A stretch of DNA of 64,000 nt from Spirochaetota bacterium (lineage in GTDB: Bacteria; Spirochaetota; UBA4802; UBA5550), in the NCBI GenBank assembly GCA_050298055.1, contig JBNKTL010000030.1:1-64000 (forward strand), given 5' to 3'. The position numbers were made by a program. Shown here piece by piece: positions 9,001-15,000 of this stretch; positions within the stretch are counted from its first letter, which is position 1, and every line of letters starts with the position of its first letter.

Positions 9001-12000
9001 AATAGTCGTGACCCTGGCATCACGATAGATTCTCTCTATCTTGTAGTCGCGGATGTAACCGTATCCTCCGAATACCTGGAGTGCTTTGTACGCGCACCTG
9101 TTTGCCGCTTCGGAAGCATAGAGCTTGGCCATGGACGCCTCCTTTGTGAAGGGCTTGCCGTCATCCTTCAGGGAAGAAGCGCTCCAGGTGAGAAGCGCCG
9201 CAGCCTCGTAATCCACGGAGATATCGGCGATCATATTCTGTATGGACTGGTGCCTGATTATGGCCTTACCGAACTGTTTTCTCTCTCCCGCGTAGCGTAC
9301 CGCTTCACTGAGGCACGCGCTGATCAGTCCCGTTGCCTGGGACGCGATCCCGATCCGACCGCTGTCAAGGGCGTTGAGGGCGACCTTCAGGCCCAGGCCT
9401 TCACCCCCCAGAACCAGTTCCCCGGGGACCTCGCAGTCATCCATAATGATCTGCACCGTACTTGACGCATTAAGCCCCATCTTCTTCTCTTCTTTCCCTC
9501 TGACAAGACCCTTTGTTCCTCCGGGGACCAGGAAAGCCGTAAGTCCTCCCCTTCCGGGCGAGGTCCTCGCGATAAGAATAAAAATATCCGCATATTTCCC
9601 GTTGGTAATGAACTGTTTCCTGCCGTTTATAATATACCTGTTTCCTTTCTTCACCGCAGTGGTTTTGAGCCCCGAAGGGTCAGAGCCCGCGTCCAGCTCC
9701 GTAAGGGCAAAAGCGCCGAGAGACTCCCCGGATGCCAGGGGGATGAGAAACTCCCTCTTCTGCTCCTCTGTTCCGAAATTCATCAGGGGCTCTGTTGTGA
9801 GATTGGTCACGCTCAGAGTCACCGCCACAGAGGCGCATGCAAAGGCGATCTCCTGCAGCGCCAGGCTGTAGCTCACGGCGCCTGCTTCCGATCCGCCGTA
9901 GCGCTCGGGGACCATCATTCCGAAGAGCCCGAGACCTGCCAGTTCATTAATGATCTTTTCAGGATACTCCCCGTTCTCATTATACTCCCGGGCAAAGGGT
10001 TCGATATGGCTCCTGGCATACTGCCTGATCATCTCCCTTATCATCCGCTGTTCTTCGGTAAAGTGGAGATCCATCTATTATATTTCCGGGGAGTAGATAG
10101 TCACAAGAAGAAGGGTCTCTTTGCTCCCGGGATTTTTCAGGGTATGTTTTACTCCCGAGTTAAAGAGCAGGGCATCATCCTTTTTAAGTTTATGGAGCTT
10201 CTGCCCCACTTTCACCTCAACCTCACCTTTAAGTACATAGATCAGTTCCTCCCCCTCATGCTGGTACTTCACCCTGGGGTGTTCCGATTTAGCCGGAATG
10301 CTCACACTGAACGCCCTCATCCGCTTTTTCTTCGCATCGGGAGTGAGCAGTGTATACTGGTAGAGATCCTCCCTCTTCTGTTCCTTTTTTCCCCCCGGCT
10401 TCTTCCCCGGTTTTTTCTCATACTGGAGATTGAGAAGTTCGTCGGGATTAATGGTCAGTGCCCGGGAGATCTTCAGGATGTCGCCAACAGGAGCAAAGTC
10501 CTTCCCTTCCTCAATTCTCTCAAGGTGGGAGATCTTCAACCCAGTTTTTTCCGAGAGCTCGTCAAGGGAGACCTTCCTCCTCTTCCTCAAACGTGCCAGT
10601 TTCCGGCCGATAGGGAGACTCTCTTTTCCTTTTTTATTCATTTTTCATCGCACGCCCCTGGATTTTTTTTCTCCCCGTTGTTCCGGGTAGATTGTGACGG
10701 GAAATTACAGGCACGTCAAGAATAATTTGCCGGGACGTTATTCGAAGAATTTCGTCCTGGAATAAAAATAAATTGAAAAAAATTCTGTTTCAATGTAATG
10801 TAAAATATCTTGTATATTTTTAACAAAGGAGAGTCAAATGAGAAAAGTCATTAAAATCAACGAATTTGCCGATGAACTGATACGAAGAATCGAAGACGCA
10901 AAGGACATCGAATGCTGCAAATTAGAGATAATGAACCTGGCAAATATCGCCAAGGAGAAGCTGGGGGACCACGATATCGAGGTCGAATGGAAAGAGGATT
11001 AGGTCCGGCTAACCCTCTGACTCTTCAATCTCCCTGGCGGCTGTTATTGCCGCTATGGTCCCATCCGCCACTGAAGTTGTAATCTGCCTGTAGGCCTTGG
11101 TCTTAACGTCCCCTGCGGCAAAGATATCATCGATATTTGTATGCATAAAGTCATCGGTATCCAGATAACCCCATTCGTCTACCATGAGTGAATCACCGAA
11201 GAGTTCAAGGTTGGGCTTCATCCCCGCAAAGATAAAGACCCCGTCACAGGAGAGGGTATGATATTTACCTGTTTTCAGGTCCTCAATTCTGATCTCCATT
11301 GTTCCGTCATCCAGCTTTTTAAACTCCCTGGGTTCATGCTCAAAAATAAAATTGATCTTCTCATTGGCAAATGCCCTCTCCTGGGCAACCCTGTTGGCCT
11401 GGAGTTTGTCAAACTGGTGTACAATGGTCACCTTTTCGGCAAATTTCGTGATAAAGAGCGATTCTTCGATGGCCGAGTTCCCCCCGCCGACAACCACCAC
11501 GTGCTTATCATCATAGTATTTGGCATCACATGTGGCGCAGTATGAAATTCCCTTCCCCTTGTACTCAACCTCGCCGGGAACACCCAGACTCCTGTAGGAT
11601 GAACCTGTTGCTATGATGATCTTTTTGGCAATGATGGTTTCAAAACCGTCAACAAGGATCTTTTTCTTTTCCAGATCAACATCCGTAATTTCAACGGCAG
11701 ATCTGAAAATAACTCCCGCGTTTTTTGCCTGTTCGGTCATATAGTGCATGAGCATGAAGCCCTCTATGGGCTTTTCAAAACCGGGAAAATTTGACACAAG
11801 ATGTGTGGTCGTTACCTGGCCTCCCGGAAGGGCAATATCCGCGACAATAGTCTTCATCCTGGCCTGTGACGCATAGATGCCCGCCGTAAGTCCGGAGGGA
11901 CCGCCGCCGATGATGAGTATATCACATTCCGTTTTGACTTTTTTTATGGCTGATTTTATCTCTGCTGCCCTCTCACCAGGTATCAGGGCATCGAGATTTT

Positions 12001-15000
12001 TGATAAGGTCAGACCTCTTTATTCCGCCGCTCAGAATATCCCCCGTCTGTTTACCGTCTTTATAGAACAGAACAGTAGGGGATGAATGGATGTCCATGGA
12101 CTCGGCAAGTTCCCTGTTCTCCTGCCTGAATATTTTTAAAAACTTTATATCGTCCCCGTAGAGTTCGCTCAGTGACTCATACTTCGGTGCAAGTGCTTCA
12201 CAGGGAGGACATTCCGTGGAATAGAAATCAACAACCACCCTGCCTCCCTGAAGCACCTCCTTTTTGTACAGGTCGGAACCGATTTCATTTATTTTACCTG
12301 CCATTGTCTGTCTCCTTTTCAAAATAGAGTGATAATCCCATCTCCATAAGTTCTTTTACCGGCCGGCAGTCCGGGGCCGATATACTGCCGGTACTATTTT
12401 CTGCAACGGATGCACAGCCTCCTCCGCATAACAGCTGCAGTGAACACTCCCGGCATTCACTGATTGTTGTTACGTCTCTTTTTTGCCAGTTCCGGATAAT
12501 TTCAGTTTCTGTCTCAACAACGGGGAAAAACTTCCCTATTGATTCACCCGCCTTTCCCGCTGTGGCCGTACAGGAGTATATTTTTCCGGTGTGGTCAAAG
12601 GCCCATTCGGTTTTACATCCGGGACATGAATCAAAAAGCGGGTCCGGCATCTCGCCGTTTTCTTTGAGAAACCGGGAGATTGAAAATGCCGGCCTGTGAA
12701 ACCGGAGTATCCGGGGATATTCATCAATCAGCCGGTAAATATCTTCATAGAGCTCAACCCTGTTATAGAGCGATTCCCTGTTTTTGAAACAGTGATGAAG
12801 TTCATAGTTCCTGCCAAGCTGTGTCTTAAAGAGCGGGTCGTCACTCCATCCTTTCTCCATGGCAAAATCCGAAAGACGGGGAAGGTCATTGATATTTTCC
12901 CTGTCCAGGACGACCCTCAGGTTAACGGGGATCCTGTTTTCCAGGGCAAAATCAACCCCCTCAACGATTTTCCGGAAGGTGGGACCCCCTCCTGCGAGAC
13001 CTCTTCTTGAGTTATGGACCTCCTCGGTCCCGTCCAAAGTCACCTGGATCTCCCTGATATCACCCCCCTGGAAAAGGTCCATATAATCGGAAAGATGATA
13101 CCCGTTTGTCACAACTGCCACCTGGAGCCCGTCCCGGGCTGCTCCTTCAAGAAGCATTTTTATGCTCTCCCGTGCTCTTACCGTATTGAGAAGCGGCTCC
13201 CCCCCGAAGATTGTAATATATTTATTCCTGTGGCTGAAATTTTCAGCAATATAGTTGAAGAACGATTCAATAACTTCACCGTTTCCCGCGGGCCCCTCAT
13301 GCTGATATTCATCCTGGTAGCAGTAAGAACATTTGAAATTACAGCCGTATCCGGGAACATAGAATATCTGGATCTCAGAGCTGTCCCTGGTTTTGATAAA
13401 CTTTTCGTATTCGCTCCTGTACTTTTTCTCCTCATCGTCCCTGTTCGCCAGGTATCCCTTTTCCACATACTCCTCAATATCAGTATACCTCTTTTCCAGG
13501 ATCTCTTTCGCCTTGTCAGGATTGAGGATATCGGCATTCCCTGAGAGGGAGTTGAGGATAAAGTAATTTTCAGAATTCTTTATCCGGGAAAAAATATTGT
13601 ACTTTGAAAAATATGTTATCATAATTATTAACTTTCTGCTGCCGGTTACCCGGCAGCAGCCTGTCTCGAACTTCCACTGCGTGATTATTAACTAATGATT
13701 GGTTAACTGCTGGAATATACAGCTATTAAGAATTATATGTACAAAATCACGCGGGCTCAGCACTAGTCGTGACACCCGGCAACAATAGGTGAAATTTTCG
13801 CACAGCACTGTGCCACGCAGCAGCATTCTGATTCCTTCTTTTTAATCAGTGAAATCATCTTTTAACTCCTTTTCGATAATAGCTTTTTCAATAAGGCTTA
13901 TGACCTTTTATTGTAAAACTCACCAGTTCGGCCTCTCCCCTCCTGTAAGGAGAGCTCTCCCCGGAAATTGTTACTTGAATAAAACCTGCAGATTCGACCG
14001 TCTCAAGATATTCATCCCGGGGAACAGCCCCTGCCCAGCAGCCGGCAACCGCTTCGGGATCACCGCTGTATTTTTCCGGGATCTTCTCCGTTGAGTAGAC
14101 ATCATTAACGATAAACTCTCCCCCCTTTTTCAGGACCCTGAAAACCTCTTCCCAGACACGCTCCTTGTTCTGTGCATGGTTAATGGTGCAGTTGGATATT
14201 ATGAGGTCAAGAGTATCATCCTCCAGGCAGATCTTTTCCAGGCTGCTCTGCACAATCTCCGCATTACTGAGACCGCTCTCATCAATTGCCTCCCTGGCCT
14301 TCCTGACCATCCCCTCGGATACGTCGATACCATAAACATATCCGCTTTTTCCCGCACGCCGGGCAAGCTTTATAACATCACCACCCCTGCCGCAGCCAAG
14401 ATCAGCACAGAAAAATCCCTCTCTGACCTCCTGGTAATCCCTTGAAGCTCCGCAGGAGAGGGAAGAGCTTTCCGCAGCCAGGCCGCTGTACCTCTTATTA
14501 ATACTCTTAATTCTTGATAAGTTCTCAGTCATTCTTTTCTTCAAGTACCTTTAGAAGAACACCCAGCGCCCTGTCAACTGTCTTTCGTTCATTTTCTGTA
14601 AGCCTGTTTTTAAGCCTCGATTCACACAATTTCTTAGCGGCTGTAATCTCTTTCCTGCAGAGATTTCCCGATTGTGAGAGTGATATCTCAATGGCCCTTC
14701 TGTCCCCCGGCGATATCTTCCGTTTAAGATACCCTTTATTTATCAGATTGTCAACTATTCTGCTTACCCGTGACGGAGAAAGATCCATCCTTCGGGAAAC
14801 TTCATGCGATGCCACTCTCTCATTTATCAACTTTTTTTTAAAATAACTTGTTAAATATTTGACGCCCGGTATTTTGTATTTTGCGAGATAAAAATTACAA
14901 ACCGATATTGTGGAAACAAAAGGAGAATATAATGCCAAGTGACAGAGATGCTGTAATCGTCAGTGCCGTAAGGACCCCCATCGGGTCCTTTGGGGGGACT

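Follow-up and report, generated by a model that had tools for sequence, protein, structure and literature searches.

In the window, by which we mean the whole 64,000-nt stretch analysed (contig JBNKTL010000030.1 of a Spirochaetota bacterium), five genes on the minus strand (11009–14938) encode a MarR-type regulator, an ArsM-like methyltransferase (MT), a 31-aa peptide, a radical SAM/SPASM enzyme (rSAM) and a thioredoxin–thioredoxin reductase fusion (Trx-TrxR). The last four of these genes occur together in at least six phyla. Tentatively, we favour a reading in which the matured peptide acts in trans with the MT to methylate a soft metalloid, driven by thiol/disulfide chemistry of the ArsM type, with recycling by the Trx-TrxR. 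The survey's finding, on which this analysis built, had reported the cassette, and all five ORFs were recovered here, co-directional on the minus strand. It had placed one end of the cassette at 14815, a position that corresponds to an internal GTG of the MarR ORF (14525–14938).

The claim that a five-gene operon is kept gene for gene held for four genes; the MarR gene was lineage-specific, being present in 25 of 120 loci and in 6 of the 51 well-flanked loci of a peptide-pattern scan. In the same scan, MT, rSAM and Trx-TrxR were all present in 45 of the 51 loci. Five genomes of the six exceptions were searched, and each contained an rSAM homologue; the sixth locus (L068) has the gene in pieces. 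In 105/113 loci the MT gene immediately preceded the peptide gene in the same orientation. Gene order was rearranged in places: some loci have Trx-TrxR upstream, and in Myxococcota the peptide is first. The cassette was detected in Spirochaetota, Bacteroidota, Myxococcota, Bacillota, Ignavibacteriota and others. Spirochaetota and Bacteroidota were thus confirmed as hosts, but Acidobacteriota, the third phylum claimed, was in none of 80 record titles among the matches listed. By phylum, the share of sampled genomes with the four-gene set was about 13% for Myxococcota, 11% for Spirochaetota, 6% for Bacillota and 1% for Bacteroidota. Of 401 Spirochaetota genomes, 46 contained an rSAM homologue at E ≤ 1e-30 and 43 of these did so at E ≤ 1e-40, the same count as before. 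Judged from record titles, the carriers are anaerobes of sediments and similar habitats. No curated family or paper describing the cassette was found in the libraries and literature searched, and within that scope it can still be called undescribed.

The peptide gene (13763–13858, minus strand), identified as an ORF and by homologous loci, is preceded by a Shine–Dalgarno sequence (AAGGAG, 13866–13871, minus strand), seen directly in the sequence 7 nt 5' of the ATG. The precursor-like product consists of a leader (MISLIKKK), a linker (ESECCCV) and a core (AQCCAKISPIVAGCHD). Among cassette peptides the leader MKSL[IV]KK and a 16-residue core with the consensus A-Q-C-C-[A/S]-K-x-[S/T]-x4-G-C-H-[D/N] were conserved, with a variable linker between them, in agreement with the leader and core proposed earlier. 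The end AQCCAKIS-x4-GCHD had been described as invariant; Q-C-C, K and G-C-H were indeed kept, while the isoleucine at position 7 was not conserved and A/S, S/T and D/N varied (GCHN replaced GCHD in 2/24 Bacillota peptides). Likewise, the three cysteines of the "three-cysteine peptide" were invariant, but the window peptide has six in all, the other three lying in the variable linker. For the invariant core residues, every synonymous codon was used among 80 distinct core DNAs. A peptide of this form was present in 83 of the 99 loci found by rSAM homology alone; the remaining 16 had short flanks, and the peptide was located elsewhere in all 6 of their genomes that were checked. The window peptide matched no NCBIfam model at E ≤ 0.01, as reported before, and no Pfam model either. 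A selenocysteine form of the cassette peptide was looked for at two of the three Cys codons, with a negative result. Since the core is unchanged across phyla, a conserved cellular function is indicated rather than a strain-specific antibiotic, and an intracellular role is suggested because no recurrent exporter or protease was found among the neighbours of the cassette.

The rSAM (442 aa; 12294–13622, minus strand) matched Pfam Radical_SAM and Fer4_12 and probably has an N-terminal domain common to RiPP maturases. The CefB and TIGR04463 models aligned from residue 5–8, the PapB and SCIFF-maturase matches likewise covered the sequence from residue 5 on, and there was no Pfam PqqD/RRE match at E ≤ 0.01. 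All maturase models scored far under their cut-offs (CefB 139.2 bits against 600, TIGR04463 120.8 against 525, PapB 104.9 against 340, SCIFF maturase 84 against 425), the first three reproducing the survey's values. Weak matches to the MftC and QhpD models were also obtained, and the best solved relative was CteB (5wgg, E 4e-13). The CX3CX2C motif (C94/C98/C101) and seven SPASM cysteines (C333, C351, C390, C393, C399, C403 and C419) were invariant in 102–103 of 103 sequences. Next to the enzyme lies a short precursor whose leader and core are conserved, as is expected of a RiPP maturase, and its earlier assignment to this type is upheld.

The MT (13888–14544, minus strand; 218 aa, or 214 counted from Met5) was most closely related to arsenite methyltransferases by far, with a profile E-value of 1e-37 compared with 1e-27 for the next family. 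The single protein matched PDB ArsM entries at E 1e-20 to 1e-19, and a profile search matched them at 1e-37. The score against the ArsM model NF008823 (170.3 bits, profile positions 56–233 of 272 covered) was below the cut-off of 263, and the protein has neither the long N-terminal region of ArsM nor its C-terminal domain. In alignment with CmArsM (4kw7/4fr0), C31, C119 and C169 correspond to Cys72, Cys174 and Cys224. These are the C27, C115 and C165 named previously, which differ only by the Met5 offset and have the same CmArsM partners, and the invariance claimed for them held in 109/109 cassette MTs. In the SNCxxN[L/H] motif, the MT has His123 where ArsM has Leu. Cysteine was present at position 27 in 84/101 relatives and at position 28 in 77/101; the window MT has SSS ahead of Cys31, where most relatives have CC. 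No equivalent of ArsM Cys44 was found on the window MT. Because the CC stretch of the relatives does not align to the ArsM N-terminus, it can be compared with Cys44 only by analogy.

The extra cysteines of the MT and those of the peptide linker were complementary in their distribution. Among 141 distinct MT/peptide pairs, they were on the MT only in 72, on the linker only in 33, on both in 35 and on neither in 1. The rSAM tree contained eight clades whose MT lacks the extra Cys, the window included, and in seven of them every member had linker Cys. Linker Cys thus occurred in 35/36 leaves of these clades, compared with 34/106 leaves whose MT has the Cys. Exceptions were L045, with neither set, and L186 and L202, whose MT has a single such Cys and whose linker has none. 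The pattern of states represents 6–8 evolutionary changes and was not significant in an independent-pairs sign test (p 0.125–0.5). It adds new support for peptide and MT cooperating on thiols. According to PMC6138428, ArsM requires four Cys to act on As(III), its N-terminal pair forms a disulfide that is reduced by Trx, and As(GS)3 is its preferred substrate; these statements fit a peptide and MT that work on thiols.

The Trx-TrxR (437 aa; 11009–12322, minus strand) comprises Pfam Thioredoxin (residues 16–111) and Pyr_redox_2 (residues 134–421) domains and scored 318.8 against TIGR01292, slightly below the cut-off of 343.45. Its redox motifs, CPPC in the thioredoxin (C38xPC41) and CATC in the reductase (C262ATC265), were each invariant in 87/87 sequences, so the reported fusion was found with both motifs intact. 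Searches of this genome (98% complete) with three models for glutathione synthesis found neither GshA nor GshF, and GshB had no match over its cut-off.

The survey had linked the cassette to arsenic or a related metalloid; gene context gave no link to arsenic. With the Acr3 and ArsR of this genome as queries over 1.02 Mb, ars genes (arsR-arsM-acr3-arsC) were found to adjoin 1/120 loci, and the cassette regulators were MarR or others, not ArsR-type. The arsR-acr3 pair of this genome lies on a different contig (C4).

Under the favoured reading, the module would be self-contained, intracellular and RiPP-like. The putative N-terminal maturase domain of the rSAM may bind the leader, and the enzyme would then modify the 16-residue core. 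On the MT, a soft metalloid with a lone pair would be bound by C119 and C169 and methylated by SAM; homology to ArsM suggests As(III), with Sb, Se or Te as possible alternatives. An oxidised intermediate would be reduced by Cys31 with the nearby CC pair, supplied by the MT in most lineages and by the peptide linker in lineages like that of the window, and the disulfide so formed would be reduced again by the Trx-TrxR at the expense of NAD(P)H. As a three-thiol carrier, the invariant CC...C in the peptide core could take the role that glutathione has for canonical ArsM. The gene set, its conservation, the motifs, the CC pattern and the hairpin are observations, whereas each chemical step, the element and the rSAM product are inferred. 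The direction of any hand-off between peptide and MT we purely infer. In favour of this scheme are the co-occurrence of the genes, the ArsM-like triad, the CC complementarity, the fusions, the Trx-TrxR, the failure to find glutathione synthesis, the operon layout with its conserved hairpin and the lack of a recurrent exporter or protease. It is weakened by the MT score (170 against 263), the missing C-terminal domain, the rarity of ars neighbours, regulators of other than ArsR type, the few evolutionary changes behind the complementarity, a CC pair that does not align with ArsM Cys44 and the sulfur/selenium-type neighbours of some loci. Of the characterised rSAM families, those nearest to this enzyme convert the thiols of Cys to thioethers, and an intramolecular thioether is, by homology, the likeliest product here. 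Such a reaction would use up thiols that a thiol-rich carrier needs, and the carrier model assigns the rSAM no necessary role. The survey's peptide-carrier reading is supported in part: as regards the cassette, the leader/linker/core division, the maturase type, the Cys triad and the redox motifs, but not as regards an arsenic link by context.

Alternatively, though we think it rather unlikely, the cassette may make an ordinary ranthipeptide/SCIFF-like RiPP, in which the rSAM cross-links Cys, the MT methylates the peptide (S, N or O) and the Trx-TrxR keeps precursor Cys reduced; the product would have a conserved cellular role, for example as a signal, metal ligand or redox peptide. The best rSAM models are all for Cys-peptide maturases, CteB being the best solved relative, and a short Cys-rich peptide adjoins an rSAM/SPASM with a probable N-terminal peptide-binding domain as in CteA-CteB, PapA-PapB, CefA-CefB and TIGR04463. 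The layout of precursor, hairpin and maturase fits too. The high conservation of the peptide and the lack of a dedicated exporter recall SCIFF. In-frame fusions of MT and rSAM (2 loci, L089 and L236) and of rSAM and DUF5714 (at least 5 loci) suggest one common substrate. However, the rSAM falls far under all the curated cut-offs, the peptide matches no model, and its core is invariant across phyla; in the cassette an ArsM-like MT and a Trx-TrxR fusion are obligate partners. A simple peptide methyltransferase needs no invariant ArsM-type triad plus fourth Cys, and a tailoring MT would have no use for the NAD(P)H-driven disulfide reductase that nearly every locus encodes for itself. The CC complementarity is also easier to reconcile with thiol chemistry common to MT and peptide than with tailoring.

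Some loci have neighbours of sulfur/selenium type. A SufS-like enzyme was encoded in 3 loci (L076 and L080 included) and a TehB/BioC-like second MT in 7; DUF302, rhodanese-CoA-disulfide-reductase and SQR-like genes were also observed. In genome G401 a second copy of the peptide is flanked by genes for a SufS-like PLP enzyme, for a TehB/BioC-like MT and for a thioredoxin. These neighbours point to sulfur or selenium instead of arsenic in some loci, and the sediment-type habitats of the anaerobic carriers would agree. The peptide could then be a persulfide/perselenide carrier or a stand-in for a low-molecular-weight thiol, the MT would methylate thiol-bound sulfane S, Se or Te, and the Trx-TrxR would free the product and recycle the thiols. 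We regard this as improbable, since such neighbours are a minority (3 to 11 of 80 loci), the MT is nearest to arsenite methyltransferases and not to known S/Se methyltransferases, and the selenocysteine search at two of the three Cys codons was negative. It is very unlikely that an ArsM-like enzyme and a reductase merely lie beside an unrelated RiPP pair, given that the four genes co-travel in at least six phyla despite rearranged order and that fusions between cassette genes occur.

Compared with ArsM/AS3MT, the cassette MT shares the core and three of the four conserved Cys. The thioredoxin system as reductant is a further likeness (PMC6138428). The cassette MT differs in its length of only 218 aa, the absent C-terminal domain, its score under the NF008823 cut-off and its position outside an ars operon context; the counterpart of the fourth Cys would be a CC pair 3–4 residues from Cys31 or would reside on a separate peptide.

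For PQQ (PqqA/PqqE), mycofactocin (MftA/MftC) and the thioether-knotted small subunit QhpC (with QhpD), a SPASM enzyme acts on a small peptide to mature it. The cassette peptide is similarly small, invariant and apparently intracellular, and would undergo SPASM maturation for a partner enzyme. Unlike these systems, it is no sequence member, lacks an evident protease or decarboxylation-type tail chemistry, and has a methyltransferase as partner. ArsD is a 120-aa thioredoxin-fold metallochaperone with a Cys12-Cys13-Cys18 As(III) site that serves the ArsA pump and needs no maturase. The vicinal CC and third Cys of the cassette peptide could form a comparable three-thiol hand-off site for As(III)/Sb(III), although the two are not homologous.

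More boldly, and doubtfully at this stage, the peptide may be the first ribosomal product that, once matured by a radical SAM enzyme, serves a methyltransferase as cofactor or co-substrate: an encoded thiol carrier of glutathione-free anaerobes that delivers a soft metalloid (As, Sb, Se, Te) and provides the resolving Cys of an ArsM-type disulfide cascade. ArsS and ArsL join carbon and metalloid by SAM-derived radicals; by analogy, in a still bolder form, the SPASM enzyme might join peptide carbon to the thiol-held metalloid, yielding a metalloid-containing RiPP. If the peptide is the thiol partner of the ArsM-like enzyme, this would explain thiol-dependent metalloid methylation in glutathione-free anaerobes, define a new class of peptide-derived cofactor and offer a testable handle on anaerobic As, Se or Te volatilisation in sediments, paddy soils and guts. 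New in this analysis are the CC complementarity, the rarity of ars neighbours, the negative search for glutathione synthesis in this genome and a hairpin 3' of the peptide gene.

The MarR ORF of the window (137 aa, minus strand) has a wHTH (Pfam MarR_2, E 2.3e-10, residues 42–82) and was homologous to cassette MarRs only over residues ~42–137 (14525–14815). Its first ~40 residues matched the other 24 poorly, and the usual N-terminus was encoded in no other frame; the protein looks N-terminally damaged. Two Cys columns were invariant in the alignment of all 25 cassette MarRs. A terminator-like hairpin directly 3' of the Trx-TrxR stop (10936–10954, minus strand), detected by consensus scan only, likely marks the operon end. 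The hairpin between the peptide and rSAM genes (13636–13660, minus strand) is G+C-rich and has a 10-bp stem; the segment 13615–13770 folded at −44.7 kcal/mol (z −3.45). Hairpins of ≤ −15 kcal/mol were present 3' of the peptide gene in 76/89 distinct spacers, compared with 57/445 shuffles (13%) and 15/89 coding controls, and in 30 of those 76 spacers at least 5 T occurred within 10 nt after the hairpin. This conserved hairpin divides MT and peptide from rSAM and reductase within the operon.

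Five ORFs follow one another in the same direction on the window's minus strand. They encode a MarR-type protein (14525-14938), a 218-aa ArsM-like methyltransferase (13888-14544), a peptide of 31 codons (13763-13858, with AAGGAG 7 nt 5' of its ATG), a 442-aa radical SAM (rSAM) enzyme (12294-13622) and a 437-aa thioredoxin/thioredoxin-reductase (Trx-TrxR) fusion (11009-12322). A terminator-like hairpin follows the Trx-TrxR gene at 10936-10954. The flanking genes (thiolase, CoA pyrophosphatase, acyl-CoA dehydrogenase and an HTH-cupin regulator) have nothing to do with the cassette. 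A 54-codon ORF without a family match, between the operon end and the next gene (10838-11002, plus strand), is probably not a gene. By consensus match alone, the promoter-like site scoring best in the region (TTGACA-17-TATCTT, 10/12; 14726-14754, minus strand) was located inside the MarR ORF, approximately 180 nt 5' of the methyltransferase start.

The cassette is real and widespread. With the rSAM protein as the query, homologues were found in four phyla. In Spirochaetota, 46 of 401 genomes contained one at E<=1e-30, of which 43 did so at E<=1e-40, the same count as in the survey's finding. At E<=1e-60, homologues were present in 24/401 Bacillota, 4/401 Bacteroidota and 40/301 Myxococcota genomes. 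Within 1.5-kb flanks, 83 of the 99 loci found via the rSAM alone contained a small ORF ending AQCC-x-K-x6-GCH-x. The other 16 loci belonged to Myxococcota (15) and Bacillota (1), and in all six genomes checked from these the peptide was encoded further along the contig or elsewhere. The converse scan, with a degenerate DNA pattern for the peptide core alone against one-genome-per-species contigs, matched at least 120 stretches. Among the matches listed, 80 loci were assigned by record title to Bacteroidota (37), Spirochaetota (15), Myxococcota (10), Bacillota (4), Ignavibacteriota (3), Pseudomonadota (2), Margulisiibacteriota (1) and Fibrobacterota (1), with seven unnamed. Carriers that can be cultivated include strains of Anaeromyxobacter, Paludibacter and Paradesulfitobacterium. 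Also among the matches listed, 51 loci had flanks of 3.5 kb or more on each side, and in 45 of these the methyltransferase, rSAM and Trx-TrxR were all present. Three of the six exceptions were additional peptide copies in genomes with the rSAM elsewhere; of the others, L122 had the rSAM only, L124 was without the reductase and L068 had its rSAM in pieces. The L068 gene, matching as three separate pieces approximately +466 to +1400 nt 3' of the peptide, probably reflects either decay of that copy or faulty assembly.

Four members of the cassette previously described as five genes are conserved together, the MarR gene occurring in just 25/120 loci and 6/51 well-flanked loci. Gene order depended on the lineage (some loci have the reductase upstream, and Myxococcota have the peptide first), which favours functional coupling over inherited synteny. 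Peptide copy number also varied. Three Myxococcota genomes (G1446, G1455 and G1476) each had two copies flanking the cassette. Among Bacillota, G473 contained two complete cassettes, and G578 a methyltransferase-rSAM pair without an adjoining peptide and two peptide copies on other contigs.

The peptide consists of a conserved N-terminal leader of the MKSL[IV]KK type, a variable linker and the invariant core A-Q-C-C-[A/S]-K-x-[S/T]-x4-G-C-H-[D/N]. Of the cross-phylum end AQCCAKIS-x4-GCHD proposed before, AQCC, K and GCH are kept; the fifth residue can be S, position 7 varies, S8 can be T and the final D can be N. Since all synonymous codons were used at the invariant Ala, Gln, Cys, Lys, Gly and His (80 distinct core DNAs), selection acts on the peptide, not the DNA. 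When a natural homologue of 47 aa was used to query a protein database, just 14 matches were obtained, none with a name, which indicates that the gene is seldom called. Nine candidates for larger proteins with the peptide core were considered; none scored.

Pfam and NCBIfam results agreed with the figures reported earlier. The best model for the methyltransferase was arsenite methyltransferase NF008823 (170 bits, cut-off 263), and ArsM provided its nearest solved structures (E 1e-20; family profile 1e-37). The best rSAM models were maturases of Cys peptides, all with scores far under cut-off (CefB 139/600, TIGR04463 121/525 and PapB 105/340 bits), and the nearest solved structure was the SCIFF maturase CteB (E 4e-13). 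The peptide had no match in either library. PADLOC gave generic methyltransferase and rSAM domain matches alone, and the cluster names from the Atlas were no more than generic 'radical SAM'. Cassette methyltransferases shared invariant R18, Y19, C31, S117-N118-C119, N122, H123, D148, C169 and Y200. The CX3CX2C motif and the complete seven-Cys SPASM motif were invariant among the rSAM homologues; the candidate eighth SPASM ligand was ambiguous (C278 in 92%, C336 in 67%). An in-frame TGA noted in one rSAM gene (L220) was merely its stop codon. The Trx CxPC and TrxR CATC motifs were each kept in 87/87 cassette reductases.

The typical cassette methyltransferase reads RY...CC-L-S-C31-GG. The window enzyme reads SSS-L-S-C31, and the linker of its peptide contains ECCC, unusual among cassette peptides. 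Among 101 methyltransferase/peptide pairs, at least two extra Cys were found in the methyltransferase only (67), the linker only (15), both (18) or neither (1). With Bacillota, Myxococcota and Bacteroidota added and at least one Cys counted, the values for 141 distinct pairs were 72, 33, 35 and 1, respectively; the naive Fisher p of 5e-12 is inflated by relatedness of the sequences. The methyltransferase trait changed only 6-8 times on the rSAM tree. In an independent-pairs test, approximately 2-4 pairs were concordant, essentially none opposed and the others tied (p 0.125-0.5). Eight clades were without the methyltransferase Cys, and in seven of these every member had linker Cys (35/36 leaves), compared with 34/106 leaves with the methyltransferase Cys. 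This complementarity is suggestive, not proof, that one extra Cys pair would be needed, on either enzyme or peptide. If so, the peptide thiols would act at Cys31 of the methyltransferase. Such a role is consistent with the features of ArsM given in a review (PMC6138428): four conserved Cys, an N-terminal Cys pair whose disulfide maintains arsenic in the reduced state, Trx as the proposed reductant and As(GS)3 as the preferred substrate. Three models for glutathione synthesis, the ligase types covered, detected neither GshA nor GshF in this genome, and no GshB above cut-off. The predicted complex of methyltransferase, peptide and SAM had an ipSAE of 0.01, with peptide pLDDT <50.

A second new observation was a conserved hairpin after the peptide gene. 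Of 89 distinct peptide-rSAM spacers, 76 contained a 45-nt window folding at <=-15 kcal/mol, compared with 57/445 shuffles and 15/89 coding controls. The stem started at a median of 7 nt 3' of the peptide stop codon, and a T-run followed in 30/76. Stem sequences varied by locus, structure alone being conserved. In the window, the hairpin (13636-13660) occurs later than the usual position. The methyltransferase gene was directly 5' of the peptide in 105/113 loci. From this layout, with the hairpin after the peptide gene, a methyltransferase-peptide transcript is predicted to be abundant and that of the rSAM and reductase lower. The predicted imbalance suits a stoichiometric peptide partner with catalytic amounts of maturase. 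A look-up of RNA runs for 11009-14938 listed none.

Our tentative explanation is that the matured peptide works in trans with the methyltransferase as a thiol partner and is recycled by Trx-TrxR. Homology favours the formation of Cys thioethers by the rSAM enzyme, and these would fit poorly with a model requiring free thiols. A tailored RiPP is a somewhat less likely reading of the cassette, and handling of sulfur or selenium is improbable. No exporter or leader protease recurs beside the cassettes. Recurrent neighbours comprise SQR-like, rhodanese, DUF1847, DUF302, NifX-like, DUF134 and Zn-ribbon proteins, extra thioredoxins, a SufS-like PLP enzyme (3 loci) and a second, TehB/BioC-like methyltransferase (7 loci). 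A scan of metagenome_contigs for selenocysteine forms of the peptide covered two of the three core Cys codons, with TGA replacing either the latter codon of the CC pair or that of the GCHD Cys, and gave 0 matches. At L056 (3771-6422), a second peptide copy lies amid genes for a SufS-like PLP enzyme (485 aa), a TehB/BioC-like methyltransferase (206 aa) and a thioredoxin (99 aa), and a full cassette (L174) is present elsewhere in that genome. Cassettes in L076 and L080 likewise adjoin the SufS-like gene.

An arsenic-specific role, as in the proposed hand-off of As(III), gained no support from gene context. A search of 120 loci (1.02 Mb) with Acr3 and ArsR of this genome found ars genes at L042 only, an arsR-arsM-acr3-arsC operon abutting a rearranged cassette; this is about chance level. 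The arsR-acr3 genes of this genome are on a different contig, C4. At L042 (G057:C75, locus coordinates 1800-11300), arsR, a 287-aa arsM, acr3 and arsC adjoin the cassette. Its rSAM and methyltransferase share one strand, the peptide is 1.4 kb off beside an ArsR-type regulator, and mere Trx-TrxR fragments adjoin the rSAM, a second Trx-TrxR copy following further on.

Neither of the curated libraries, NCBIfam (June 2026) and Pfam, describes the cassette. The literature searched, largely outside subscription journals, contained no link between an arsenite methyltransferase and SPASM and no report of the peptide motifs. The cassette belongs best with rSAM/SPASM peptide systems, from which it is distinguished by the ArsM-like enzyme and the private reductase to which it is obligately coupled. 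New here are the Cys-pair complementarity between methyltransferase and peptide linker, and the hairpin conserved after the peptide gene.

A Cys/His-rich domain, DUF5714, was an added component in Bacillota and Myxococcota, and likewise in a divergent Spirochaetota/Brevinema-type branch; it was absent from this genome. Fusions to the rSAM occurred in Bacillota and one Myxococcota locus. Loci with such a fusion include L066 (3766-5946), L104 (6104-8236), L183, L198 and L114. The domain matched NCBIfam 'metal-binding double selenoprotein MbdU' (116 bits). A suspected likeness to the C_GCAxxG_C_C family had no Pfam support at E<=10. The predicted structure was all-helical (pLDDT 89.5), with no Foldseek match at E<=0.001; the best VIA match, CyuA 9fsl (Z 6.4, rmsd 3.6 over 129 residues), was too weak for a helical protein. 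Common methyltransferase-rSAM fusions in Myxococcota ('661-aa open frames') were ruled out, as 27/28 loci had different frames or the same frame with stops between; in-frame joining was found only in L089 and L236, both Myxococcota.

Over its first approximately 40 residues (14816-14938, minus strand), the window MarR ORF was unlike the 24 further cassette MarRs, whose type of N-terminus is not encoded in any other frame either. The stretch is also shared in part with the 5' end of the thiolase gene, which runs divergently. The MarR may be a truncated or rebuilt form here, in which case the operon would be derepressed. The two Cys of the MarR were invariant in all 25 cassette MarRs aligned. 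In 11 Bacteroidota loci (e.g. L050 4610-5044, minus strand), a divergent gene upstream of the methyltransferase, at the position of the Spirochaetota MarR, encodes a 144-aa protein with an IS1595-type zinc ribbon that may be the local regulator.
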